NCBI GenBank assembly: GCA_016874795.1 | Contig: VGTG01000004.1 | Coordinates: forward strand, 11,734-75,733 | From: Deltaproteobacteria bacterium | GTDB taxonomy: Bacteria; Desulfobacterota; Binatia; UBA12015 | Length of the DNA stretch: 64,000 bases | Direction of reading: 5' to 3' | Shown here: positions 3,618 through 59,336 of the stretch, piece by piece | Position numbering within the stretch: position 1 is the first letter of the stretch | Layout: each line of letters starts with the position of its first letter | Made by a program: the position numbers and the translations under genes | Notes under the pieces: generated by a model | Told to the model about the DNA's origin: nothing | Seen by the model: only the letters and a program-made list of their open reading frames with translations | Databases searched by the model: none

Positions 3618-4559
3618 ATGCGTCTGGTGCTCTTCGGTCAAGCCGCCTTCGGTCAACGCGTCCTCGCCGGACTGCGCGATGCCGGACACGAGATCGCGCT
3701 CGTCTACGCGCCGACGGAGGCCGATCCGCTCGGCCAGGAGGCGACGAAGGCCGGCGTCCCGCTCCGCACGCCGAAGAGCTACAAGACGCCCGAGGTCGCC
3801 GCGGAGGTTTCCGGCGCCGCCGCGGATCTCGGCGTCCTCGCGTTCGTCACGAAGATCATTCCGCAGACGGTGATCGATGCGCCGCGGCTCGGGTCGATCT
3901 GCTTCCATCCGTCCCTCCTGCCGAAGTACCGCGGTGGCAATGCGCTCGCGTGGCAGCTGATTCGCGGCGAGACGCGCGGCGGCTTCACCGTGTTCTGGAC
4001 GGATCCCGGCATCGACACGGGACCGATCCTGCTGCAGCGCGAGGTCGCGATCGCGCCGGAGGACACCGCCGGCTCGCTCTACTTCGACAAGATCTTCGAG
4101 GCCGGCATCGCGGGCATGGTCGATTCGGTGAACCTGATCGCCGCCGGGAAGGCGCCGCGTGAAGCGCAGGACGAATCGCAGGCTTCGTACGATCCGCTGT
4201 GCACCGACGAGCACGCGGCGATCCGCTTCGGCGCGCCGGCAAGGGCGGTCTACGACCTGATCCGGGGCTGCGATCCGCAGCCGGGCGCGCATGCTCTCTG
4301 GAACGGAGAGGTTCTGCGCTTCTATGGACCGAAGCGCGTCGAGCGCGGTGCGGCGGACGCGGGCCAGCTGCCGGGAACGGTGCTCTCGATCGGCGCGAAG
4401 GAGATCGTCCTCGCCGCGGGCACGGGTGCGGAGGCGGGCGCGATCGCCGTCGGCCGCGTCCGTATCGGCAAGGACAAGCTCGCCGCGGGCGAGGCGGCCG
4501 AGCGGGCGGGGATCGCTCCGGGCTCCGTCCTCGGGGACGGCGCCGTCTCTCCGCGCTGA
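3618..4559 (+). CDS. Formyltransferase, methionyl-tRNA formyltransferase-like (N and C domains)
   Basis: MRLVLFG...; HPSLLPKYRGGNALAWQLIRGE...GIDTGPILLQ is a formyl_trans_N signature, followed by a C-terminal Fmt-like domain. Confidence 0.75.
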   Translation: MRLVLFGQAAFGQRVLAGLRDAGHEIALVYAPTEADPLGQEATKAGVPLRTPKSYKTPEVAAEVSGAAADLGVLAFVTKIIPQTVIDAPRLGSICFHPSLLPKYRGGNALAWQLIRGETRGGFTVFWTDPGIDTGPILLQREVAIAPEDTAGSLYFDKIFEAGIAGMVDSVNLIAAGKAPREAQDESQASYDPLCTDEHAAIRFGAPARAVYDLIRGCDPQPGAHALWNGEVLRFYGPKRVERGAADAGQLPGTVLSIGAKEIVLAAGTGAEAGAIAVGRVRIGKDKLAAGEAAERAGIAPGSVLGDGAVSPR

Positions 4560-4890
4560 GCCCACGCCCCCCTTTTCTCTTGCCCGCTCCTGCGCGAGGC
4601 ATTATCTTTCAAGCGCTCTCCCGACCGCGTCGGGCCAGGTGATCGAGGTTCCTGCCGAGGGCGACGAAACGCGTCGACCCGAGGTTGGAGGTCGGTGGCT
4701 CCCGGGGTTCGGGGGGACGCAGACATACCGCTGGGATCCAGATGGCCCGCCGACCCGAAGGGCGGCGGAAGGCTGGACCGGGACGGAGAAACGGCGCCGC
4801 TTCATGCGCCTCGACCCTCGAGGCCGTTGCGCGTCCGGGTGAACGCACACCGCTCACCGACTTCCGCCACCGGTCCGGGAGGTCTCGATC

Positions 4891-6681
4891 GTGAGCGCGA
4901 AAGTCACAGCCCCGGACATTCTGGTTGCGAAGCAGACGGGTCGTCGCCTGACGATGGTGACGGCCTACGACCGCACGTTTGCGAGCCTGCTCGATCGCGC
5001 AGGAGTCGACATCCTGCTCGTCGGCGACAGCCTCGCGATGGTCGTGCAGGGCGAGAGCTCGACGCTGCCGGTCACGCTCGACGAGATGGCGTATCACACG
5101 CGGCTCGTCGCCCGCGCGAGGCCGCGCGCTCTCGTTCTCGGCGATCTGCCGTTCGGCTCCTACCTGACCCGCCGTGACGCGCTCGAGAGCGCCGCGAAGC
5201 TGATCAAGGCCGGAGCCGAGGCGGTGAAGCTCGAGGGCGGTCTCAACCAGGCCGAGACGATCCGCGCTCTCGTGCAGGCGGAGATCCCCGTGATCGGCCA
5301 CATTGGCTTGACGCCGCAGGCGGTGCACCGCATGGGCGGCCACCGGGTGCAGGGGCGCGATCACGCGACGCGCCAGCGCGTCCTCGACGACGCGCGCGCG
5401 GTCGCCGAGGCAGGCGCCTTCGCGATGGTGATCGAGGGCGTGCCGCTCGATCTCGCACGGCAGATCACCGAGACGGTCGCGATCCCGACGATCGGCATCG
5501 GCGCAGGTCCGCACTGCGGCGGCCAGGTGCTCGTGATGCACGACCTCCTCGGCATCGAGACGGGCGAGCGCACGCCGCCGCGCTTCGTGCGCCGCTACGC
5601 GAGCCTCGGCTCGCAGGTGACTTCCGCGGTCGCCGCGTTCGCCGACGACGTGCGGAGCGGCCGCTTCCCGAGCGACGACGAGTGCTACCACGTGAAGGGC
5701 AGCGCCGAGCGCGCCGCTCCCCGCATGGTCGAGGTCTCATCGATCGACGAGATGCGCGGCTGGTCGGAACGCCAGCGCGCCGCGGGACTCCGCGTCGGGT
5801 TCGTACCGACGATGGGCTACCTGCACGAGGGCCACCTTTCGCTCGTGCGCGCCGCGCGCGAGCGCTGCGATCGGGTCGTCGTGTCGATCTTCGTCAACCC
5901 GATCCAGTTCGACCGCGAGGACGACCTCGTCTCGTACCCGCGCGACCTCGAGCGCGACCGCCGTCTCCTCGCCGAGGCGGGGGTCGACGTGCTCTTCGTC
6001 CCGGGTCCGCGGGAAATGTACCCGGACGACTTCGTCACGACGGTCGACGTCGAGCGCCTGACGACCGACCTCTGTGGCGCGCATCGTCCCGGCCACTTCC
6101 GCGGCGTCACGACGGTCGTCGCGAAGCTCTTTCACGCGGTGCGACCCGACGTCGCGGTCTTCGGACAGAAGGACTGGCAGCAGGTCGCAGTCGTCCGCCG
6201 CATGGCGCGTGACCTCGACTTCGGGATCGAGGTCGTCGCGGGTCCGACCGTGCGCGAAGGCGACGGGCTCGCGCTCTCGAGCCGGAACGCCCGCCTCTCG
6301 GGACCGGCGCGGGCCGCGGCGATCGCGGTTCCGACGGCGCTCGACGCGGCACGGCTCGCCGTCGCCGACGGAGCGCGCACCGCGGCCGAGATCGACGAGG
6401 CGATCCGCCGCTCGCTCGCGAGCGAGCCGGCGGCGAAGCTCGAGTACGCCCGCGTCGTCGATCCCGACTCGCTCGAAGCGGTCGACTTCGTGCGCGGCCC
6501 GGTCCAGCTCGCGGTCGCGATCTGGGTCGGCGGCGTGCGGCTGATCGACAACGTCCGCATCGATCCGGCGGAGGGTAGCCCGGAGCCGATCGCGCGGGCT
6601 CTTCCGACGCTTTCCGACGCGACGGCTTCGACCGATCCGCAGACTCCGGCTGCGCTTCTCGCGAAGCCCGAGAGCCGTTGA
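4891..6681 (+). CDS. panB/panC: Bifunctional PanB-PanC fusion: 3-methyl-2-oxobutanoate hydroxymethyltransferase (N-terminal, about 265 aa) fused in frame to pantoate-beta-alanine ligase (C-terminal)
   Basis: One uninterrupted 596-codon frame. The N-terminal half aligns with PanB (TMVTAYD...LLVGDSLAMVVQG...KLEGG...IGIGAG). From about codon 270 it aligns with PanC (RVGFVPTMGYLHEGHLSLV...VSIFVNPIQF...FGQKDWQQ). There is no stop between them. Confidence 0.8.
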   Translation: MSAKVTAPDILVAKQTGRRLTMVTAYDRTFASLLDRAGVDILLVGDSLAMVVQGESSTLPVTLDEMAYHTRLVARARPRALVLGDLPFGSYLTRRDALESAAKLIKAGAEAVKLEGGLNQAETIRALVQAEIPVIGHIGLTPQAVHRMGGHRVQGRDHATRQRVLDDARAVAEAGAFAMVIEGVPLDLARQITETVAIPTIGIGAGPHCGGQVLVMHDLLGIETGERTPPRFVRRYASLGSQVTSAVAAFADDVRSGRFPSDDECYHVKGSAERAAPRMVEVSSIDEMRGWSERQRAAGLRVGFVPTMGYLHEGHLSLVRAARERCDRVVVSIFVNPIQFDREDDLVSYPRDLERDRRLLAEAGVDVLFVPGPREMYPDDFVTTVDVERLTTDLCGAHRPGHFRGVTTVVAKLFHAVRPDVAVFGQKDWQQVAVVRRMARDLDFGIEVVAGPTVREGDGLALSSRNARLSGPARAAAIAVPTALDAARLAVADGARTAAEIDEAIRRSLASEPAAKLEYARVVDPDSLEAVDFVRGPVQLAVAIWVGGVRLIDNVRIDPAEGSPEPIARALPTLSDATASTDPQTPAALLAKPESR

Positions 6682-6691
6682 GGAGGTCCCC

Positions 6692-7096
6692 GTGAAAAAG
6701 GGAACGATGCCGATGCGCAAGGTGCTGCAGGGCAAGATCCACCGCGCCACGATCACGGGTGCGGACCTCCACTACGAGGGCTCGATCACCGTCGACAAGC
6801 GGCTGATGGACGCCTCCGGTCTCCTCGAGTGGGAGGCGGTGCACGTGTGGAACGTCACGAACGGCGAGCGCTTCGAGACCTACGTGCTCGAGGGCGAGCG
6901 CGACTCGGGCGTGGTCTGCGTGAACGGAGCCGCAGCGCACAAGGTCTCGGTCGGCGACCTGATCATCATCGGGTCGTTCACCTGGGTCGACGACGACGCG
7001 GCGCGCGTGCACGAGCCGAACATCGTGCTCGTGGACGAGCGGAATCGGATCAAGTATCTTAGCGCGAACGCAGCGGAGAAGGCGACGGCGGCCTGA
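6692..7096 (+). CDS. panD: Aspartate 1-decarboxylase
   Basis: MRKVLQGKIHRATITGADLHYEGSITVD...VNGAAAH is the pyruvoyl-dependent PanD family (self-cleavage site G-S in YEGSIT). GAGGAGG lies upstream of the GTG at 6692. The start may alternatively be the ATG at 6713. Confidence 0.85.
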   Translation: MKKGTMPMRKVLQGKIHRATITGADLHYEGSITVDKRLMDASGLLEWEAVHVWNVTNGERFETYVLEGERDSGVVCVNGAAAHKVSVGDLIIIGSFTWVDDDAARVHEPNIVLVDERNRIKYLSANAAEKATAA

Positions 7097-7112
7097 AGCC
7101 CGCCGGACGCCT

Positions 7113-8249
7113 GTGGAGGCGTCGATGGCGGGTTCCGCTCCACCGGAGCTGACGGCGGCGTTCGATCGCTGGCTCGCGGTCCAGCGCGAAGCGGTCGAGC
7201 TCGTCCAGAAGGCCGATCATCCCGGCACGCCCGAGGATTGGGCGGAGGGCTTTCGCTGGGTCACGCGCATCGCGAGCCTGGCGCTCGACTACGTGGTCGA
7301 GAAGGGCGACCCGCTGAAGCCCGTCCTCTTCCACGCGCAGGACGAGTACCGGAAGCTCCTCGTCGACAACCCGGACGTGAGCTACTGGTTCGCGGTTCTC
7401 GATCCGAAGGAGACGTACCGACTCACCGGCACGCGCGGCGAGGCGCCGTACCTCGGCTTCACGATCGGCACGAACGTCTTCAAGCCGAGCCAGGGCGGCC
7501 GTACCGGCACGCTCGGGCAGAGCTACATCGATCAGTTCGAGGTCGACGAGAATGGCGACTTCGAGATCATCCTCTCCGCGAAGCGGCACGAGGGGAACTG
7601 GATCGAGCTCCCGGAGGGCACGCAGCACCTCGCGGTGCGCGAGACGTTCCACGACAAGCAGAAGCAGAAGCACTCGACGATGAAGCTCGAGCGCGTCGGC
7701 GGAGCGATCGTGAGGCCGCTCGCGCCCGCGGAGCTCGCGCAGCAGCTCGACGACGCGGGCGTCTACCTGATGTTCGTCGTGCGGACGGGAATCCTGATGT
7801 GGGCGGGCGCGGGCCAGCGCCGGAACCAGCTCACCGGCGCTTCCGGCGCGCGTCATGTGAAGGCGCAGGACGACCAGATCCGGAGCCACTCGGACACCGA
7901 CATGGTCTACATGGGCACGCGCTTCGAGCTCGCGGAGGGCGAGGCGCTGGTGATCGACGTCGCGCCGCCGCCGTACCCGTTCGTCTACTGGGGGCTCGTC
8001 GTCGTGAACCCGTGGATGGAGTCGTACGACTACCGCCACCTGTCGGTGAACACGAACGATCGCCAGGCGAAGAAGAACGCGGACGGCTCGTGGACGCTCG
8101 TGCTGTCGCCGGAGGATCCGAGCAAGCCGAACTGGCTCGACACCGCAGGACGGCGCGAGGGGTTCCTCCTGCTCCGCTGGGTGCTCGCGGGCGACGCGCC
8201 GCCGACGCCGAAGTGCACGCTCGTGCCGATCGCGTCGCTGCGCGGCTGA
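7113..8249 (+). CDS. Conserved hypothetical protein (DUF1214-like)
   Basis: Coherent 378-aa ORF with normal composition. The family assignment is from memory only. The start could be the ATG at 7125. Confidence 0.5.
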   Translation: MEASMAGSAPPELTAAFDRWLAVQREAVELVQKADHPGTPEDWAEGFRWVTRIASLALDYVVEKGDPLKPVLFHAQDEYRKLLVDNPDVSYWFAVLDPKETYRLTGTRGEAPYLGFTIGTNVFKPSQGGRTGTLGQSYIDQFEVDENGDFEIILSAKRHEGNWIELPEGTQHLAVRETFHDKQKQKHSTMKLERVGGAIVRPLAPAELAQQLDDAGVYLMFVVRTGILMWAGAGQRRNQLTGASGARHVKAQDDQIRSHSDTDMVYMGTRFELAEGEALVIDVAPPPYPFVYWGLVVVNPWMESYDYRHLSVNTNDRQAKKNADGSWTLVLSPEDPSKPNWLDTAGRREGFLLLRWVLAGDAPPTPKCTLVPIASLRG

Positions 8250-8258
8250 ACCGCTCGC

Positions 8259-9503
8259 TCAGACCTCCGACGGGACGCCGTAGCGCTCCTGGTACTTGAC
8301 GTGGCGCGCGCGCTCGGTCGCGAGATCGAGCCCCGTGTCCGCGAAGCTGTACTCGTGGACGCCGCGCTGGCTTCGCGGCCGCGAAGCGAGCCGCTCGCGG
8401 AGGCGCTCCTCGAAATCGTTCCGGAACGGGATCCCGAAGTGCCCGTAGATCCCGCGGACGCTCTCCAGCGGGTTCGCGACGAGGTCGGCATAGCGCACGT
8501 CGAGGATCTGCTCGTTCGGCACGGCGCCGTCGTCGCGGAGCTTCGCCATGTGGGCGAGCTGGTACTTGAAGCCGAGCCCCATCGACTGGACGATGCCGTC
8601 GTAGTCGACCCGGTCGCTTCGCATCCAGCGGATCGTCGCCATCAGGTTCGAGATCGAGCCGAGCTGGCGCAGCGGATCGCGATGCGTGATCACGACGCGT
8701 GCGTCCGGATACGTCGCGAAGAGAAGCGGCAGGTTGTGCAGGTGGCTCGGTGCCTTCAGCGCCCAGCGCTCCCCGCGATGACGCGACTGCAGGAGCTGCA
8801 GCAGGCGACGGTGATAGTCGTACGCCGGCTTCTGATCCGTCGTGATCGTCCACGTCATGTACGACGGCACGTCGAAGTTGCCGACGAACATGTCCGTCGC
8901 GAGCTGGTGCGCGAGGAGGTAGATGCACTCGCTCGCGAGGCCGCCGCCGACTTCCTGCATCGAGGGGAGGGACGGTATGACCTCGTCCATCAGAGAGACC
9001 TCGCGGTGCGCCGCGAGGATGCGCGGATCGGTGTCGTACGTCGACGGCTCCGGCGGCGGGACCGAGTACATCATCTCCCAGTAGGTCGGCGCGCGCGACG
9101 TCGGATCGCAGGCGAGGAGGTCGTGGAGAAAGGTCGTGCCGGAGCGGCCGAGGCCGGTCACCACGAGCGGCGCTTCGATGCGCTCCCTCTCGACCTCGGG
9201 ATGCCGCTTCCAGTGGTCCTCGATCCGGAGGCGGTTCTCGAGGATGCGCTGCGTCTCGAGGCGCGCGAGGAGCCGGCCGATCAGGTTCAGCCGCGCCTCC
9301 TCCTCGAGCGCAAGGAGGAAGATGCGGAGCGGCTCGCGGAACCAGTCGTCGCCGAAGTCGTCGAGACCCGTCGCTTCCCGAGCGGAGCGGAGGAGCGTCT
9401 CCTCGTCGAGCGGAGCGAGCGCGCGCCCGCCGTCGCCGAGGCTCTCGCCGAGCACGTTCAGACGGTCGACCCACGAGGCTCTCTCCGGTGGCGTCCAGGG
9501 CAT
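8259..9503 (-). CDS. Sulfotransferase family protein
   Basis: 414 aa. VVTGLGRSGTTFLHDLL is a PAPS-binding 5'-PSB loop, typical of bacterial sulfotransferases. Confidence 0.7.
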   Translation of the reverse strand: MPWTPPERASWVDRLNVLGESLGDGGRALAPLDEETLLRSAREATGLDDFGDDWFREPLRIFLLALEEEARLNLIGRLLARLETQRILENRLRIEDHWKRHPEVERERIEAPLVVTGLGRSGTTFLHDLLACDPTSRAPTYWEMMYSVPPPEPSTYDTDPRILAAHREVSLMDEVIPSLPSMQEVGGGLASECIYLLAHQLATDMFVGNFDVPSYMTWTITTDQKPAYDYHRRLLQLLQSRHRGERWALKAPSHLHNLPLLFATYPDARVVITHRDPLRQLGSISNLMATIRWMRSDRVDYDGIVQSMGLGFKYQLAHMAKLRDDGAVPNEQILDVRYADLVANPLESVRGIYGHFGIPFRNDFEERLRERLASRPRSQRGVHEYSFADTGLDLATERARHVKYQERYGVPSEV

Positions 9504-9579: not shown

Positions 9580-10053
9580 ATGGCGGAGGACGGCGGCGAG
9601 AAGCTCATCGCGCAGAACCGGAAGGCGCGCCACGAGTACTTCATCGACGAGCGGTTCGAGGCCGGCATCGTGCTGACCGGACCCGAGGTGAAGTCGCTGC
9701 GCGACGGCCAGGTGAACCTCCGCGACTCGTACGCGCGCGTGACGAAGGACGGGGAGATGGTCCTCGTCGGCGTGCACATCTCACCTTACGGCCACGCCGC
9801 GCGAGAAGAGCTCGATCCCGATCGGGCGCGGAAGCTCCTTCTTCACCGTCGTGAAATCGACCGGCTCGCCGGGAAGGTACGCGAGCGCGGCTTCACGCTC
9901 ATTCCGACGCGGCTCTACTGGAAGGGCGGCCGCGCCAAGGTCGAGATCGGTCTCGCGCGCGGCAAGGAGCACCGCGACAAGCGCGAGGACCTGCGGAAAG
10001 CCGAGCAGCGGCGCGAGATCGATCGCGCGATGAAGTCGCGGCGGCGCGGTTAG
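9580..10053 (+). CDS. smpB: SsrA-binding protein
   Basis: KLIAQNRKARHEYFIDERFEAGIVLTGPEVKSLR...RLYWKG is the canonical SmpB sequence. It lies 3.8 kb upstream of ssrA. Confidence 0.9.
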   Translation: MAEDGGEKLIAQNRKARHEYFIDERFEAGIVLTGPEVKSLRDGQVNLRDSYARVTKDGEMVLVGVHISPYGHAAREELDPDRARKLLLHRREIDRLAGKVRERGFTLIPTRLYWKGGRAKVEIGLARGKEHRDKREDLRKAEQRREIDRAMKSRRRG

Positions 10054-10279: not shown

Positions 10280-12133
10280 GTGGAATCGCTGATGGATCCG
10301 GCTGCCGCCGATCGCGGTCGCGGGATGCGCATCGCCTGGCGGTTCCTGCTCCCGGCGGTCGCGGCCGTTCTCGGCACGCTGCTCGTCGCCGTCCCCTGGC
10401 TCGTCTGGACGCTCGACCAGGAGCAGATCGCCGCGCTCGTCGCGCGACTCGACGGCGAGGCACGCGAGGCCGGGGCCGTCCTGCCGTGGCAGTCGGGGCC
10501 CGATCTCGACCGGGCCGCCGCGGTCGTGAGCAAGCGTCTCGGAGCGAGGATCACGGTCATCGCGCCCGACGGCAAGGTGCTCGGAGAATCGACGCCGCAC
10601 GAGACTTCGCTCGAGAGCCACGTGAACCGACCCGAGGTGCAGGACGCCTTGACGAGCGGCGGGGGCAACGTCGTGCGGTGGAGCGACACGATCGACCGCC
10701 GGCTTCTCTACGTCGCGCAGCTCGACGAGCGCGACGGGGAGCGGCGCGTGATCCGCATCGCCGTCCCGATCGGCTCCGTCTCGGAGCACCTGCTGCGTCT
10801 GCGCGCTCCGATGACCATGGCGCTCGCGGCTGCGATCGCTCTCGGTCTCGGCGTCGCCTGGCTCGTGTCGAGCGCCATGCGTCGCCGCGTGCAGCGGATG
10901 GTCGACTTCGCCGCGGCGCTCGCTGCCGGCGCACCCGCGCCGCAGATGGCGACCGAACGCACCGACGAGCTCGGCCTCCTCGAGGCGCAGCTCGCGGAGA
11001 TGGCGAGCACGATCCAGGTCGCGCTCGCGACGATGCGTGTCGAGCGCGAGCGGCTCGAGGCGATCCTGAGCGGCATGGTCGAGGGCGTGCTCGTCACCGA
11101 TCTCGACGGCCGCGTCGTGCTGCTGAACGCACGCGCGCGCGAGCTGCTCGCCGTTCCGGCGAGCGTCGAGGCTTCGGGCCGCCCGCTGATCGATTTCGTC
11201 CGCGATCCGGCCTTCGCCGAGATTCCGCGGCTGCTGCGTACCGGGGACGGGGTCGTCTCGCGAGAGGTGTCGCTGAGCATGCCGGGGGAGGGTGGCCGCT
11301 GGCTGCAGGTGAACGGCGCGCGGCTCCGAGGGGCCGCGGGCGTGCCCTTCGGCCTCGTTCTCGTGCTGCACGACGTCTCCGAGCTGCGTCGTCTCGAGAC
11401 GGTTCGGCGCGACTTCATCGCGAACGTCTCGCACGAGCTCCGGACGCCGCTGACCGCGATCAAGGGCTACGCGGAGATGCTGCTCGGTCCGGCGGGCGAG
11501 AAGCGGGACACGGCTCTCCGCTACCTCGAGATCATCGACCGGCATTCCGAGCGCCTCGGCCGGCTGATCGACGATCTGTTCGCGCTCTCCGACCTGGAGT
11601 TCGGTCGCGCTCCGCTGCGACGGCGCGCCGTCGCCGTGAGCCCGGCGATCGTCGACGTCGTGCAGATCCTGGGAGAGCGCGCCTCGCAGGGGGGCCTGAC
11701 GTTGAGCACGGAGATCTCGGAGGGACTTCCGCTCGTGCAGGCGGATCCGGATCGGCTGCGCCAGGTGCTGATCAACCTCGTCGACAACGCCGTCAAGTAC
11801 ACTCCGGAGGGCGGACGCGTCACGATCTCCGCCCGACCAACGAAGCTCGGAAGCGGCGACGCCGTGGAGCTCGCTGTCGCCGATACGGGCATCGGGATCC
11901 CGAGCCAGGACCTGCCGCGGCTGACCGAGCGGTTCTTCCGCGTCGACAAGACGCGCTCGCGCGATCTCGGCGGAACGGGTCTCGGTCTCGCGATCGTGAA
12001 GCACATCGTGCAGGGACACGGCGGGCGCCTCGCGATCGAAAGCACGCTCGGGCGCGGAACGACGGTGATCGTCACGCTCCCCGCGACGGCGCCGCCGACG
12101 CCGTCCACTGCCACTGCTGCGCCCGGCGCGTGA
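10280..12133 (+). CDS. Sensor histidine kinase, PhoR-like (TM, PAS, HisKA, HATPase_c)
   Basis: H-box FIANVSHELRTPLTAIKGY, N-box LINLVDNAVKYT, G-boxes DTGIGI and GGTGLGLAIVK. It sits upstream of phoU-like and pit genes, and no response regulator is adjacent. The start is ambiguous (GTG 10280, ATG 10292 or 10325). Confidence 0.8.
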   Translation: MESLMDPAAADRGRGMRIAWRFLLPAVAAVLGTLLVAVPWLVWTLDQEQIAALVARLDGEAREAGAVLPWQSGPDLDRAAAVVSKRLGARITVIAPDGKVLGESTPHETSLESHVNRPEVQDALTSGGGNVVRWSDTIDRRLLYVAQLDERDGERRVIRIAVPIGSVSEHLLRLRAPMTMALAAAIALGLGVAWLVSSAMRRRVQRMVDFAAALAAGAPAPQMATERTDELGLLEAQLAEMASTIQVALATMRVERERLEAILSGMVEGVLVTDLDGRVVLLNARARELLAVPASVEASGRPLIDFVRDPAFAEIPRLLRTGDGVVSREVSLSMPGEGGRWLQVNGARLRGAAGVPFGLVLVLHDVSELRRLETVRRDFIANVSHELRTPLTAIKGYAEMLLGPAGEKRDTALRYLEIIDRHSERLGRLIDDLFALSDLEFGRAPLRRRAVAVSPAIVDVVQILGERASQGGLTLSTEISEGLPLVQADPDRLRQVLINLVDNAVKYTPEGGRVTISARPTKLGSGDAVELAVADTGIGIPSQDLPRLTERFFRVDKTRSRDLGGTGLGLAIVKHIVQGHGGRLAIESTLGRGTTVIVTLPATAPPTPSTATAAPGA

Positions 12134-13877: not shown

Positions 13878-14233
13878 GGGGGCGACCAGGTTTCGACGGA
13901 GGTTATGAGGTCGAGGGCTGCACGCCGAGGATCCCGGTTGGCCTCGTTAATCATCCGGGGCTGCAAACTAACTGCAGACAATTTCTACCACCTCCAGGCG
14001 GCTTAGTTCCGCCCGGCGCTCGCCCGGTCCTCTCCCGAGGGGCTGAAGCGAGTGTCATTTAATCGGGATCGGAGTCGCGCCCCTGCCAGGGAGCGCGCCT
14101 CTTAAACTTTCCTGGCTGGCTGCAGCGGACCCCGCTCACGGGGGCCAAAGCGGCGAGATCAAATCGTGAGCTAAGCGTGTAGTGGCTTTCGGTCGAGTGC
14201 CTTCGGACGGGGGTTCGATTCCCCCCGCCTCCA
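13878..14233 (+). ncRNA. ssrA: tmRNA (transfer-messenger RNA, one-piece)
   Basis: The 5' acceptor GGGGGCGACCAGGTTTCGACGG and the 3' T-arm/acceptor GGACGGGGGTTCGATTCCCCCCGCCTCCA align with E. coli tmRNA, including the GCCGAGG...GGCCTCG pseudoknot region. The internal tag frame is ...GCA GAC AAT TTC TAC CAC CTC CAG GCG GCT TAG (ends AA-stop). Confidence 0.85.
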
Positions 14234-15332
14234 GTGTTGCGACCAGTTCGAACCTGCTTCCGAGGTCGGCCTGGTCGAGAAGGTCGAGAACCTCGAGAGA
14301 GGTGTCGGCCTGGTAGTACGGCTTCCCGACCTCCGGCCGCAGCGGCCGGAGGCGGATCGGGCCGAGAACGCGGCGCAGGACGAGGGCGGACCGAGAGGTG
14401 TTCCGGTTCAGGACCTCGGCGAACGGTCGCAGGCGATCCGCGATCCATTCGATCGGGGGTGCCTGGAACACGGCTTCGACGGTCGCTTCGAGAGCACCGA
14501 CCTCGATCCGCAACCGATCGACTTCGCGCTCGGCTTCTTCCAGCGCCTGTCCAAGCGCACGCGTGCCCTTGCCGTCGGCGATGAACTCGATGAAGTTGGC
14601 GACGCGCCGCCGCTCGACGTCGAGCTTGCCGCGGGTGAGCTTGAGCGTTTCCGGCACGTCCGCATGCAGTCGCTTCACTTCCACTTCCACGCGGTCCAAA
14701 ACGTAGCGGATCGACGCGGAGTCGGAGATGTGCTCGCGGATGGCGGCGAGGACGCACTTCTCCGCGACGCTTCGCCGGACGAGGAGCTTGTTCTCGCAGG
14801 CCGCCTTCGAGGCTCCGAGGCATCCGTAATGTCCGCCGCTCTTGCCACTCACCTGCGCCATCGACTTTCCGCAGCTCCCGCACCGGAGGAGTCCGGCGAG
14901 CAGGTGAGGCGGATTCGTCTCGACGTAGCTCCGCTGACGCCCCGCCGCTCCCTTCGGCCCCCGACGAACCGGCCACACGCGGCCGACCTCCTGCCAGCGC
15001 TTCGTGACCCGCTGCCAGCAATCCTCGGAGACGAGGCGGAGGTCTTCGTCCTGCCGGACGTCCCATTCGTTTTCGGGCTTGGGCACTCGACGCTTGCGGC
15101 CGGTGAGCGGGTCGCGGCGGGTTTCGGTTCGATTCCAGATCCAGCGCCCGCTGTACTTCTGGTTCTTGAGGACCCGGCTGACCGTGGACGGCGACCACCT
15201 CTTCCACAGACCCTTCCGTCCGGGAACACCACGAGCATTGAGGTCGGCGACGATCGCTTTGATCGAGACGCCCGCGGCGAAGTCGCCGAAGATCTTCCGC
15301 ACGACCTCCGCTTGCGCCGGATAGGGCTTCAT
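14136..15332 (-). pseudogene. Large serine recombinase lacking the N-terminal resolvase catalytic domain (recombinase domain, zinc-ribbon and coiled-coil only). Its 3' end overlaps the ssrA 3' end
   Basis: The ORF begins directly in the recombinase domain (KIFGDFAAGVSIKAIVADLNARGVPGRKG...STVSRVLKNQKYSG), then the zinc ribbon (LLRCGSCGKSM...YGC) and coiled-coil. No resolvase-type Ser catalytic domain was found upstream in the minus frames read. The sequence upstream of 15332 instead encodes a transposase on the other strand. Confidence 0.65.
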
Positions 15333-16148
15333 CCGGTAGCCCTCCGGCCGAGGCCGGCCGCGAAGGACGCGGTCTCACGCCTGGTCGGGCGGATGAGCGA
15401 AGACTTCGAGTCCTGGCGGACGCGGGATCTGGCGAACGAAGGAATCGTCTACTTGTTCATGGACGGGTGGTACCCGAAGGTTCGCATCGGCAAGCGGCGG
15501 GCACGTGTTCCGGTGCTCGTGACCCTTGGCGTTCGCAGCGACGGCGAGAAGGTCGTGCTGGACATGCGGATAGCGGGTGACGAGACCACGGCTGCTTGGG
15601 GGGAGGTGGTGGCCGACCTGGCGAAGCGCAAGCTGGGAGGGCCGATCCTCGCGGTGATTGACGGGAATCCCGGGCTGGCGGAGGCGCTGCGGGGGGAGTG
15701 GCGGAAGATCGAGATCCAGCGATGCACCGTTCACAAGTTGCGCAACCTTGAGGCGAAAGCGCCTGCATCGCTGCGCGAGGAGCTTCGCGAGGACTACCGG
15801 CGGATGATCTACGGCAAGACGGCCACCGATGTCGAGAATGCGCGGGGCCCGTTCGTGAAGAAGTGGAAGCTCCGTTGTCCTGCAGTGGTGAGAAGCTTCG
15901 AGGAGGCGGGGGACGACCTCTTCACCTTCCTGCGCTTCCCGAAGACCCAATGGCGAGCCTTGCGGACGACGAATGCACTTGAGCGGATCAACGAGGATTT
16001 CCGCCCCCGGACGAAGACGCAGGCAAGCCTGCCGAACGAGGACGCGGTGCTGCTCCCGCTCTTCGGCGTGCTGCGGAGTGGCAAGGTCAAGATGCGGAAG
16101 CTCGACGGCTGGGAGGAGATGGCGAGGCGAGAGAGAAAGGCAGCGTAG
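15330..16148 (+). mobile_element. IS256-family (mutator-type) transposase fragment, N-terminal roughly third missing
   Basis: YLFMDGWYPKVRIGKRRARVPVLVTLGVRSDGEKVVLDM...ILAVIDGNPGLAEAL...CTVHKLRNL...ALRTTNALERINEDFRPRTK are hallmark IS256 Tnp blocks covering the DDE region. Homology begins abruptly where the recombinase fragment ends. No intact inverted repeats were verified. Confidence 0.7.
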
Positions 16149-53317: not shown

Positions 53318-55342
53318 GTGAACGAAGAGATGCGAACGGAGCCGGAGGCATCCTCGGCGCTGTTGCGGCGCTTCTACGAGACCGCACGCACGATCCGCGA
53401 GTTCGACGATCGGATGCGTCGCGGTCTCGCCTCGGGCGAGTTCATGATGAGCTACTGGCCCGTCGAAGGGCAGGAGGCGATCTCGACCGGAGTATGCGCC
53501 GCGCTCGAGCCGGACGATCGGATGGTGATCACCTATCGGTGCGCCGCCGACGCGATCGCGAAGGGCGTCGACCTCGGCGAGCTCGCGGGCGAGCTCCTCG
53601 GGAAGTCGACGGGAACGTCGGGCGGTCGCGGCGGCGCGATGGGCATCAGTGCGCCCGACATCGGACTTCTCGCCACGACCGGCATCGTCGGTGCGGGCGC
53701 ACCGATCGCGACGGGCGTCGCTCTCGCGGCCCGACAGCTCGGCTCCGGACGCGTCACCGTCGTCTCGTTCGGGGACGGCGCGACGAGCATCGGCGCGGTC
53801 CACGAGGCGATGAACCTCGCGTCTCTCTGGCAGCTTCCGCTCGTGTTTCTCTGCCACAACAATCTCTTCGGCGAGGGAACGCCGGTCGCGGAGTACACGC
53901 GCACCGAGCGTTTCTCGGATCGGGCGGCCGGCTACGGAATGCCGGGTGTCACGGTCGACGGCACCGACCCGGTCGCGGTCCACAAAGCGGCGAAGGAGGC
54001 GGTCGCACGTGCGCGTAGAGGCGGTGGTCCGACGTTCCTCGAAGCGATCGCGTTCCGGTTGAACGGGCACTACTTCGGCGATCCCTGCACCTACGTCGAC
54101 GCCGCGAAGCTCGAAGCGGCCAGGGGGAACGAGCCGATCGCGAAGCTGCGGAATCGACTCGTCTCCGGCGGCGTCACGGCGGCCGACCTCGATGCCCTCG
54201 ATCAGCGCATCGCGGACGACGTCGATCGAGCGGTGAGCTCCGCGGTCGCGGCGGACATGCCCGCTCCCGAGACTCTCTACGCGCACGTCTACGGCGGGAC
54301 CGACCGGTTCGGCGCCGTCTCCGAAGGGAAGCGCATCGCCACGTCGGTGAGCGCGGGAGCGGAGAGCGAGCTGTCGCTCGCCCAGGCCGTGAACCAGGCT
54401 CTGGAGCAAGCGATGGCGCGCGACGACAGAGTCGTGCTTCTCGGCGAGGACATCGCCGATCCGATGGGCGGTCTCTTCACCTGCACGAAGGGTCTGTCGA
54501 CCCGGTTCGGCCGCGATCGCGTGCGCGCGACGCCGATCGCCGAGGAGGCGATCGTGGGCTGCGCCATCGGGGCCGCGCTCGACGGTCTTCGCCCGGTCGC
54601 GGAGCTCATGTTCGTCGACTTCCTCGGCGTCTGTCTCGATCAGCTCGCAAACCACGCTGCAAAGCTGCGCTTCATGACGGGTGGCCGCGTGCACGTCCCG
54701 ATCACGCTGCGCTCCGTCGAGGGGGCGCACTCGGGACCGCAGCATTCGCAGGCGCTGGAGGCGTGGTTGACGCACGTCCCCGGCCTGAAGGTCGCGGTCG
54801 CGAGCACACCGCGCGACGCGAAGGGCCTCCTCACGACGTGCATCGAGGACGACGACCCCTGCGTCTTCATCGAGCCGATGCAGCTCCTTCTCGCGCGCAC
54901 GATGCGCGGTCTCGTACCGGACGGGGAGATCCGGATTCCGCTCGGCCTCGCAGACGTGAAGCGCGACGGAAAGGACGTGACCGTCGTCTCGTGGGGCGCG
55001 GTCGTGCACGCGGCCCTGCAGGCGGCGGCGGAGGTCGCCTCCGAGGGGATCGAGGTCGAGGTCGTCGATCTGCGGAGCCTCGTCCCGCTCGACCTGGAGA
55101 CGGTTCTCGCCTCGGTCGGGAAGACGCGCTGTCTCGTGATCGCGCACAGCGCCACGACGTTCTCGGGGTTCGGTGCGGAGATCGCGGCGCTGGTCTCGGA
55201 GCGCTGCTTCGGCGAGCTGAAGGCGCCCGTCTCTCGCGTCGGAGCGGCCTTCACGCCCGTGCCGCGGGCACACTCGCTCGTCGCGGCGCACAGCCCCGGA
55301 GCGCCGCAGATTGCGGCCGCAGTGCGGCAGGTCTGCCGATGA
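53318..55342 (+). CDS. 2-oxoacid (pyruvate/acetoin/branched-chain type) dehydrogenase E1 component with alpha and beta subunits fused in one 674-aa polypeptide
   Basis: The N-terminal half is a TPP-binding E1-alpha (GDGATSIGAVHEAMNLASLWQLPLVFLCHNN). From about residue 335 it is a transketolase-like E1-beta (LSLAQAVNQALEQAM...VVLLGEDIADPMGG...). It is one continuous frame. Confidence 0.8.
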   Translation: MNEEMRTEPEASSALLRRFYETARTIREFDDRMRRGLASGEFMMSYWPVEGQEAISTGVCAALEPDDRMVITYRCAADAIAKGVDLGELAGELLGKSTGTSGGRGGAMGISAPDIGLLATTGIVGAGAPIATGVALAARQLGSGRVTVVSFGDGATSIGAVHEAMNLASLWQLPLVFLCHNNLFGEGTPVAEYTRTERFSDRAAGYGMPGVTVDGTDPVAVHKAAKEAVARARRGGGPTFLEAIAFRLNGHYFGDPCTYVDAAKLEAARGNEPIAKLRNRLVSGGVTAADLDALDQRIADDVDRAVSSAVAADMPAPETLYAHVYGGTDRFGAVSEGKRIATSVSAGAESELSLAQAVNQALEQAMARDDRVVLLGEDIADPMGGLFTCTKGLSTRFGRDRVRATPIAEEAIVGCAIGAALDGLRPVAELMFVDFLGVCLDQLANHAAKLRFMTGGRVHVPITLRSVEGAHSGPQHSQALEAWLTHVPGLKVAVASTPRDAKGLLTTCIEDDDPCVFIEPMQLLLARTMRGLVPDGEIRIPLGLADVKRDGKDVTVVSWGAVVHAALQAAAEVASEGIEVEVVDLRSLVPLDLETVLASVGKTRCLVIAHSATTFSGFGAEIAALVSERCFGELKAPVSRVGAAFTPVPRAHSLVAAHSPGAPQIAAAVRQVCR

Positions 55343-56333
55343 CGGAGGTGCGGATCCCGAAGACCGGCGACGCCGTCGAGGAAGGAACGCTCGTCGAGTG
55401 GCTCGTCGAGGACGGTGCGCGCGTCGAGCGCGGCGATCCGCTGTACCTTCTCGAGACCGACAAGGTCGCGATGCAGATCGAGGCGCCGAGCGCGGGCGTG
55501 GTCGCGCGCATCGGAGTGCCGGGCGAGATCTACCCCGTCGGCGAGCTGGTCGCGACGATCACCGAGCGACCGGGATGAGTCTTGGGGGGAGCGAGGCTTC
55601 GGCCACGGATCCCCGCGGCGAAGTTTGCGTCGAGCGGCTCTCCCACATCCGCCGCTGAATCGGCAAGCACATGGCGACGTCTCGTTCGACGTCGCCTCAC
55701 ACGGTCATGGCGATGGAGGTCGACTACACCCGCGTGCGCGCGGAGCTCGACCGCGCGAAGAGGGAAGGACGTTCGCTCTCGTACCTGCCGTTCGTCGCGG
55801 CCGCGGTCGCGGAAGCGATCGTCGACTTCCCGCACGTGAACGCATCCATCCTCGGCGACGACCTGCACGTCTTCCCCAAGCTGAACCTCGGCATCGCCGT
55901 CGATCTCGACTTCCAGGGCTTGATCGTCACCGTCGTTCGCGGCGTTGCGGAGAAGCCGTTGGCCGACGTCGCAAGCGAGATCGAGGAGCTCGCGACACGC
56001 GCTCGAAATCGGGCTCTTTCGCCCGACGACGTCGCGCACGGGACCTTCACGATCACCAACGCGGGCGGGTACGGGACGCTCTTCACCGCCGCGATCATCA
56101 ACCAGCCGCAGGTCGCGATCCTTTCCACCGACGGGATCACGCCCAAGCCGGTCGCGGTTGCGCGGGAGAGCGGTGGCTGGGATGTCGAGGTCCGTCCGAT
56201 CGGTGTGCTGACGCTGACCTGGGGCCACCGCGCCTTCGACGGAGCCTACGCCGCGGCCTTTCTCAAGCGGTCGAAGACGGAGCTCGAGCAGCGCGACTGG
56301 CGCGCCGCCGTCGAAGGGAGAACTGAAGAATGA
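55339..56333 (+). pseudogene. Dihydrolipoamide acyltransferase (E2) disrupted: intact lipoyl domain (55339-55578), then a stop and frameshift, then the catalytic domain lacking its first roughly 40 residues (55671-56333)
   Basis: The lipoyl domain is IPKTGDAVEEGTLVEWL...LETDKVAMQIEAP (lipoyl-Lys in ETDKV) then TGA. The second ORF in another frame has the catalytic motif LTWGHRAFDGAYAAAF (DHRxxDG) but starts mid-domain. No PSBD/linker is present. Confidence 0.65.
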
Positions 56334-58273: not shown

Positions 58274-59336
58274 CCACTACTTCAGTTGTCTCGGTTTGCG
58301 CCGCCGGCCGATCGCGATTCTGCAAAGAGGCCTCGTGGTCCCGAGTTGGCTGCCCACCTTGAGATCGACGGCACTTCGGTAGAGGAGGTGGCGGTCCAGA
58401 TCGTCGGTGCGTCAATGCGCCGACGAGAGCCCTCGCTCGGCGGACGTCCGCAGCGAGCAGCTCGAGCGCAAGCTCGACGCCGCGGCTGCCGCCCGCGCCG
58501 TGACCGTACAGCTAGGCCTGGCCCGCCATGGAAGCGCGAGCTCCCAGCGAGAAGCTTTCACGACGTCGCTTCCGCGGCGGACTCCGCCCTAGCTTAGCTA
58601 TAGCTAGCGGAGGTCTCGATGCGGTCACTGACTGCGTCGGCAACGGGTGCGACCAGGTCGATCGTGGCGGGCGTGCCGTCGAGTTGCCGGCCGCCTTGAG
58701 GGCTCCGAAGAGCGCAAAATTTCATCAGCAATCGTCTGGCGCCTCGAAACGGAATCCTCCCGAGGCCAGAGGGCGTGTCAAGAGATTCGTTTCGGTCGGC
58801 GAGGCTAGTCTGGAATGGCGCCCAATCCTCGGCCGGTGGAATGGAGGATGAGGTGGTTGGGATAGGCCTGTACGAATGGGCTATCGCGCTCTCATGGGGG
58901 TGGGAACCCGGCGCGTCACAGCGGGCCGCAACATGGGGAACGCAGCAGCGAGATCAATCGGAAGTATGTGAAAAAAGTACTGGGCAGCCTGCGCCCGCTG
59001 GCAAGCTTGGAACCGCGGGCGAGGCGGCCGGACTGTGAGCGGCCGGTGTCGAGCCGGTAGGAAGAGGTGGAGACAGGAACGAGCGAGAAGCGAGTTGAGG
59101 CGAACCTCGAGCATTGGAAAGCAGACGGCCAGCCGGGCTGCGGTTCGAATTGGTTGCGAGCGCGTCCACTTTTCAACCATCGGTTTCGACTAAGTTCGTT
59201 TTCTTTCGGGCTGTGACAGTCCGCTGTGACGGTTTTCCTGTCACAGCGATGCTCTCCGCGACGCCCTCGCCGTCCTTTCGGCGACGGAGCCGATGCTGGA
59301 ACATCAACGAGGCCAGCGCTGGCCTTGTTCTCGCGG
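58274..59336. other. About 1-kb non-coding, locally lower-GC region with short palindromes (GCTAGC/TAGC repeats at about 58588-58612; CTGTGAC-n9-GTCACAG at about 59228-59250; GGCCAGCGCTGGCC at about 59305-59318). No credible ORF
   Basis: All six-frame ORFs here are Arg-rich or low-complexity with no family resemblance. Confidence 0.5.

Follow-up and report, generated by a model that had tools for sequence, protein, structure and literature searches.

Does the 596-codon open reading frame that directly precedes panD in a Deltaproteobacteria bacterium of the Binatia (GTDB lineage UBA12015) encode one protein serving two steps of pantothenate synthesis, or are two separate enzymes joined there in appearance only? 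The frame, panBC, is located on contig VGTG01000004.1 (assembly GCA_016874795.1), of which a stretch of 64,000 nucleotides (positions 11,734 to 75,733, hereafter the window; GC content 67.8%) was analysed. A first-pass annotation of this DNA had proposed that ketopantoate hydroxymethyltransferase (PanB) and pantoate-beta-alanine ligase (PanC) are fused in frame through a short linker and are followed by panD. We find that PanBC is a genuine single-frame fusion of a complete PanB and a complete PanC. Very probably this is a vertically inherited Binatia fusion, in which one 596-residue chain comprises the complete PanB (step 1 of the pathway) and PanC (the final ligation), and is encoded in an operon with panD.

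The list of open reading frames and the sequence itself agree on a single frame that runs from the PanB start through the entire PanC without a stop codon, as had been proposed, and two full-length domains are recognised in the product. The linker quoted in the first-pass annotation, FPSDDECYHVKGSAERAAPRMVEV, was located at residues 259-282, and the inter-domain linker comprises approximately 20 residues. GC content at third codon positions (GC3) is 0.8-1.0 in one frame through the junction, with a value of 0.7 found only in the last interval scored, over the C-terminal tail.

The PanB half matches PF02548 (Pfam) with 354.5 bits (cut-off 28.7; profile positions 1-258 of 259, residues 4-261), and the equivalog model TIGR00222 (NCBIfam) with 317 bits (cut-off 207.6; profile positions 4-264 of 264). 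It contains the motifs GDS (45-47), GDLPF (84-88), VKLEGG (112-117), GHIGLTPQ (136-143) and VIEGVP (180-185). In an alignment of 90 fused homologues S47, D85, K113, E115, H137 and E182 are invariant, and D46 is present in at least 90%; the E. coli PanB counterparts of these residues are D45, S46, D84, K112, E114, H136 and E181, which we take to be the metal-binding and catalytic residues of that enzyme. Comparison by Foldseek with the chains of Burkholderia PanB (PDB 3vav) yielded template modelling (TM) scores of 0.86-0.87 at 50% identity. The AlphaFold predicted local distance difference test (pLDDT) values are mostly >90 for residues 1-260, and the TIM-barrel fold matches that of solved PanB.

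In the case of the PanC half, PF02569 is matched with 340.6 bits (cut-off 20.7; profile positions 4-267 of 268, residues 283-555) and the equivalog TIGR00018 with 294 bits (cut-off 212.8; profile positions 4-282 of 283). The motifs PTMGYLHEGH (306-315), NPIQF (336-340), GQKDWQQ (425-431) and SSRN (463-466) were identified, with G314, H315, Q339, K427, D428, Q431 and S463-N466 invariant in the same alignment. These motifs presumably correspond to the HxGH, pantoate-binding and ATP-binding residues of M. tuberculosis PanC (M40, H44, H47, Q72, K160, D161, Q164 and S196-S197-R198). Foldseek places the PanC half, a two-domain Rossmann fold, on PDB 2ejc, 3inn_A and 3mxt with TM scores of 0.96-0.97 and a root mean square deviation of 1.1-1.3 Å. 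The model for the bifunctional PanC/(d)CMP kinase, NF010004, fell short of its cut-off of 524 bits, reaching only 292, and was matched over positions 5-281 of 514 only.

The first-pass annotation had suggested that the structure of the fusion be predicted. An AlphaFold monomer model, built on the alignment of the 90 fused homologues, is a confident one (mean pLDDT 91.2, predicted TM score (pTM) 0.80, only residues 572-596 disordered), with each half fitting the corresponding solved PanB or PanC structure. The active sites of the two enzymes appear intact, and since motifs and folds are preserved the protein would be expected to catalyse both reactions. No PDB chain containing both PanB and PanC was found in the PDB sequence and Foldseek comparisons.

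The identical 596-residue protein occurs on three other contigs (ENA ERZ27247963, Logan SRR7985589 and Logan SRR16108669), which are 99.96-100% identical to the window at the nucleotide level over panBC, and each of which carries panD downstream. A variant present in JGI data occurs on 5 contigs. We searched protein clusters at the 90% identity level and examined the best 120, of which 106 are PanB-then-PanC fusions and 11 have the reverse order, PanC-PanB. One of the reversed fusions (P0099; locus L087, 5342-7644) lies directly 3' of a DUF2520 gene (PF10728) with a 4-nt overlap; DUF2520 proteins presumably include the PanG-type ketopantoate reductase, and if so, this operon would provide all three steps in two genes. 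The clade to which the window protein belongs comprises approximately 48 clusters of 581-631 residues with 63-78% identity, all of them single-frame. Identity to the window protein within this clade is 0.75 for PanB and 0.73 for PanC, as compared with 0.38-0.44 for the linker and 27% for the C-terminal tail. The length of the linker varies between 17 and 28 residues without any interruption of the frame, and a tail of approximately 25-55 residues is found throughout the clade. Conserved domains connected by a variable segment are what one expects when a genuine linker between domains is only weakly constrained. A relative with 71% identity (P0015, locus L084) shares the synteny of the window (IclR, DLH, FGase, PKD, formyltransferase, PanBC, PanD and, later, SmpB). 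Together, the synteny and the clade-wide occurrence indicate that the fusion is older than considerable divergence. The SmpB encoded in the window is 100% identical to an NCBI protein from a metagenome-assembled genome labelled 'Deltaproteobacteria bacterium'; of seven further named relatives, five (74-76% identity) are Candidatus Binatia, and the other two carry the labels 'Deltaproteobacteria' (73%) and 'Thermodesulfobacteriota' (70%). The data suggest that the fused clade of the window is a Candidatus Binatia clade.

Given a fused frame, free PanC could be made either via an internal start at M279 (ATG 5725) or by proteolysis of the linker, with the two enzymes then acting separately. M279 is the probable former PanC start: among 42 distant fusions, 14 have Met in this column, and PanC of unfused relatives starts at this position; furthermore, the linker is the least conserved part between both domains. 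We nonetheless judge this quite unlikely. ATG 5725 is not preceded by any Shine-Dalgarno-like sequence (the region reads GCCGCTCCCCGC), and the M279 column contains L 24, M 11, T 8, V 4 and N 1 in the clade, so the start codon is not conserved. The missing ribosome-binding site and the variable column make a conserved internal restart unlikely. With respect to proteolysis, the AlphaFold model shows an ordered linker (block-mean pLDDT ~85-88), as opposed to a floppy cleavable loop.

It is less probable still that one half has decayed to a structural or regulatory appendage, with activity derived from a second gene copy elsewhere. While a second panB or panC could exist elsewhere in the genome, we found nothing that positively supports this scenario: both halves score like stand-alone enzymes on the equivalog models, the catalytic and ligand-binding motifs checked are invariant or nearly so in the 90 fusions, the halves are equally conserved in the clade, and their folds match those of solved enzymes (TM scores 0.87 and 0.96). 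Least credible of all is an artefact in which panB and panC are in reality two genes and seem merged only because of an indel or a miscalled stop in the spacer: most of the species-representative loci listed do have separate, adjacent genes, many in frame with one stop, such that one base error could mimic a fusion, but the same product was obtained from three other samples processed by different pipelines, the JGI variant recurs on its 5 contigs, the ~48 distinct clusters retain one frame with differing linker lengths, and the GC3 signal is unbroken over the junction. The concern about a sequencing frameshift raised in the first-pass annotation is thus laid to rest by the three independent assemblies and the frame retention across the clade.

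How did the fusion originate, and how widespread is it? At least 80 species-representative loci were listed, with a best match of ~60% identity; these constitute an outgroup sample, not a census. In almost all of the 80 listed loci panB and panC are adjacent but separate, many sharing the same frame with one stop between them. Neighbour-joining trees of each domain show the window clade to be monophyletic, with unfused genes from Actinomycetota and Myxococcota metagenome-assembled genomes (MAGs) as nearest neighbours. In three of these neighbours (L019, L001 and L002) panB ends in ...FPDEAHSYR and a stop codon, and the PanC N-terminus follows no more than a few codons later without a change of frame. 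Because removal of that stop would give exactly the window arrangement, the fusion most likely arose through loss of the panB stop in a tight in-frame panB-panC pair, whereby the spacer became the linker.

The trees require 12-20 changes between the unfused and fused states. PanB-PanC fusions appear to have arisen repeatedly in bacteria by a very simple route, in which a single stop codon is lost. When 1.84 billion representatives at 50% identity were searched, a set in which the whole window clade is one representative, approximately 35 of the best 150 matches proved to be fused, compared with 5,905 relatives of PanB or PanC at E <= 1e-30. The PanB-PanC fusion is a small minority, but a recurrent one. 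The database search proposed in the first-pass annotation therefore bears out the fusion itself, with many bacterial relatives, while the rarity implied there does not hold, given many public bacterial sequences in addition to those of a whitefly and of haptophytes. Separate PanB-PanC groups exist in the Acidobacteriota, represented by Granulicella sibirica WP_338323417, which adjoins coaBC and is named 'Multifunctional fusion protein' in UniRef, and by Bryobacteraceae MAGs. Three further proteins (P0100, P0117 and P0118; ~970-1,003 residues) are PanB-PanE(ApbA)-PanC triples, arranged in pathway order. On the contig of P0117 (JGI sample 3300072015) there is in addition a gene for a protein with DUF1899 and WD40 matches, which we take to be eukaryote-like. 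The triples may be eukaryotic, which would agree with the 'one ORF spanning all 3 genes' described for alveolates (PMC8764084).

A single fused panB-panC is found among the 80 listed loci, L008 (5986-7611 of that locus; CP059262.1, 'MAG: Exiguobacterium profundum'). Its domains group with unfused genes of Gemmobacter and Pseudorhodobacter (Alphaproteobacteria) and not with those of Firmicutes; it may represent a mislabelled or chimeric record, a very recent fusion, or an assembly error.

Under the explanation we favour, the PanB half would make ketopantoate, a separate reductase would convert this to pantoate, and the PanC half would ligate pantoate to beta-alanine supplied by PanD. The benefit would probably lie in co-expression at a fixed 1:1 ratio and in co-assembly, although a nearly neutral fusion is also conceivable. 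As the fused steps are non-consecutive, no direct channelling between the fused sites is expected. It had been stated at the outset that the fusion joins the first and third steps without the reductase PanE; in agreement with this, tblastn searches using the PanE part of the three PanB-PanE-PanC triples found no PanE homologue in the window. Pfam scans likewise revealed neither PanE nor IlvC among most of the called window genes, several stretches lying outside those scans.

A number of points weigh against the favoured explanation. No ketopantoate reductase was located in the window, and the pathway is therefore assumed to be complete. One fused chain must suit the quaternary structures of both enzymes, decameric for PanB and homodimeric for PanC (PMC7770189). 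The linker of PanBC may be cleaved post-translationally. Finally, the neighbour-joining trees of each domain are rough, carry no support values and were built with unfused genes whose sampling is biased.

The joining of a decamer-forming enzyme to a dimer-forming one constitutes a small structural puzzle, for which the Granulicella sibirica protein is a possible study object. The ordered linker, together with the pTM, is compatible with a fixed arrangement of the PanB and PanC domains. One arrangement that can be envisaged, although we think it unlikely, is a PanB decamer core with C-termini near the two-fold axes holding five PanC dimers. The ketopantoate reductase and PanD could also bind to this complex, perhaps via the C-terminal tail, whose presence is conserved but whose sequence is variable, and the whole could act as a metabolon passing on intermediates despite the non-consecutive nature of the fused steps.

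Returning to the favoured operon, the gap between panBC and panD is exactly 10 nt (6682-6691), as the first-pass annotation had given it, and begins with the GGAGG ribosome-binding site of panD. This arrangement is consistent with a compact operon, and translation of the two genes is possibly coupled. PanD matches PF02261 with 164 bits and TIGR00223 with 163.5 bits (cut-off 106). Since the profile match starts at residue 8-9, the panD start may be ATG 6707 or 6713 instead of GTG 6692. The self-cleavage motif LHYEG-S occupies residues 26-31, with G30-S31 encoded by nt 6779-6784; a Gly-Ser self-processing site is known to yield the PanD pyruvoyl group (PMC3496974). A panD gene is also present 3' of the fusion in the relatives at loci L081-L085. 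In a scan of 4450-8400, promoter-like sites were absent and a single terminator-like site was detected, which is not above chance, such scans being uninformative at 68% GC in a non-model organism. The coordinates of the locus are collected in Table 1.

Table 1. Position of panBC, its domains and panD within the window
Feature	Coordinates	Strand	Details and basis
Shine-Dalgarno-like GGGAGG	4877..4882	+	8 nt 5' of the panBC GTG; read from sequence
panBC (fused panB-panC)	4891..6681	+	596 codons, GTG start, TGA stop at 6679-6681; open reading frame list and sequence
PanB domain (ketopantoate hydroxymethyltransferase, TIM barrel)	4900..5673	+	residues 4-261; PF02548, TIGR00222
Inter-domain junction	5674..5736	+	residues 262-282, SDDECYHVKGSAERAAPRMVEV; core linker 268-278
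PanC domain (pantoate-beta-alanine ligase, Rossmann fold and C-terminal domain)	5737..6555	+	residues 283-555; PF02569, TIGR00018
Disordered Pro/Ala/Ser-rich C-terminal tail of PanBC	6571..6678	+	residues 561-596; pLDDT <50 for 572-596
GGAGG ribosome-binding site of panD	6682..6686	+	directly after the panBC stop; read from sequence
panD (aspartate 1-decarboxylase, pyruvoyl-dependent)	6692..7096	+	134 codons from GTG; PF02261, TIGR00223

Downstream, a DUF1214 gene (7113..8249, + strand) starts 17-28 nt past panD, with which it may share a transcript. In the 71%-identity relative (L084) a PhoX gene occupies this position, and the DUF1214-panD linkage is absent there. The next gene encodes a sulfotransferase (8259..9503, - strand).

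Further along the window, smpB (9580..10053, + strand) is located ~4 kb upstream of a tmRNA gene (13878..14236, + strand; Rfam RF00023, 182 bits) with the predicted tag peptide ADNFYHLQAA. An insertion of ~44.9 kb (14234..~59167, with the right-hand boundary at ~59161) begins exactly after the tmRNA 3' end (...CCGCCTCCA). In L081, which derives from the same population and is 99.96% identical up to 14233, the tmRNA end is followed by sequence matching 59161-59293, i.e. the empty site. The ends of the insertion resemble imperfect inverted repeats (left GTGTTGCGACCAGTTCGAACC, right GGTTCGAATTGGTTGCGAGCG). Its cargo is catabolic, and includes acyl-CoA dehydrogenases, family III CoA-transferases, enoyl-CoA hydratases, luciferase-like monooxygenases, two P450s, a Rieske oxygenase and a TetR regulator. 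The insertion has the appearance of a genomic island at ssrA that varies between strains. Its left end (14136..16148) contains a fragment of a large serine recombinase (- strand) with Recombinase and zinc-ribbon domains at ~14736-15320, but without the Resolvase catalytic domain. This fragment abuts, at ~15330-15342, an IS256/Mutator transposase fragment on the + strand that covers positions 127-370 of 379 of PF00872. As the recombinase and transposase genes both look truncated, the island integrase is probably dead.

A second fusion is found at 53318..55342 (+ strand), where 674 residues combine E1 alpha (E1_dh) and E1 beta (Transket_pyr and Transketolase_C) of a 2-oxoacid dehydrogenase, followed at 55671..56333 (+ strand) by an open reading frame with the E2 catalytic domain only. 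Near the other end of the window, comparison of L081 positions 5577-5662 with window positions ~466-487 reveals 64 extra bases in L081 with overlapping alignment blocks, which suggests a repeat that varies in copy number between strains.

PanBC leaves the understanding of the pathway unchanged; its practical value is modest and lies in annotation and in a corrected taxonomic range. The named members (P0048 and P0123 in the window clade, as well as the Granulicella and Bryobacteraceae proteins) are labelled at NCBI only as '3-methyl-2-oxobutanoate hydroxymethyltransferase', and no fusion-specific model exists in NCBIfam. Name-based reconstructions of Binatia and Acidobacteriota could consequently miss panC and predict a false vitamin B5 auxotrophy. 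Within the literature searched, coverage of which was incomplete, we found no paper on a bacterial PanB-PanC fusion or on Binatota and pantothenate.

Among known systems, the panBC gene of the whitefly Bemisia tabaci was acquired horizontally, and its silencing lowers pantothenate levels (PMC10530615, PMC9972918). As in the window, PanB and PanC functions reside in one gene without the reductase, a step for which the whitefly relies on symbiont ilvC. In contrast, the whitefly gene is eukaryotic, nuclear and intron-containing, with a reportedly Pseudomonas-like origin, whereas the window gene is a native bacterial operon gene. Comparing the whitefly gene by its description, we consider the window panBC most likely independent of it, because the neighbour-joining trees place the window clade nested among unfused bacterial genes and contain several separate fused bacterial groups.

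A fused panB-panC has also been described in the haptophyte Calcidiscus leptoporus, together with a survey that validated 65 fusions in 1,678 species possessing both genes and found them confined to marine eukaryotes (PMC13518057). The haptophyte fusions likewise form one non-truncated two-domain protein, and resemble the pattern seen here in being rare and sporadic, but they belong to marine eukaryotes, whereas the window gene and the sequences related to it come from bacteria (Binatia, Acidobacteriota). Our data support the existence of bacterial PanB-PanC fusions in several phyla, contrary to that survey (PMC13518057).

Other fusions that place pathway enzymes on one chain involve different partners. 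These include PanC-Cmk (NF010004), the KPHMT-KPR fusion of Toxoplasma and the three-gene open reading frames of alveolates (PMC8764084), as well as CoaBC. The window PanBC matches only the PanC half of NF010004, and has no PanE domain. With respect to the stand-alone enzymes, each half of PanBC is full-length and motif-complete, shares 40-50% identity with solved PanB (1M3U, 1OY0, 3VAV) and PanC (1IHO, 1MOP, 2EJC) and has the same fold, with the difference that in the solved structures PanB and PanC are individual chains, 264-328 residues long.

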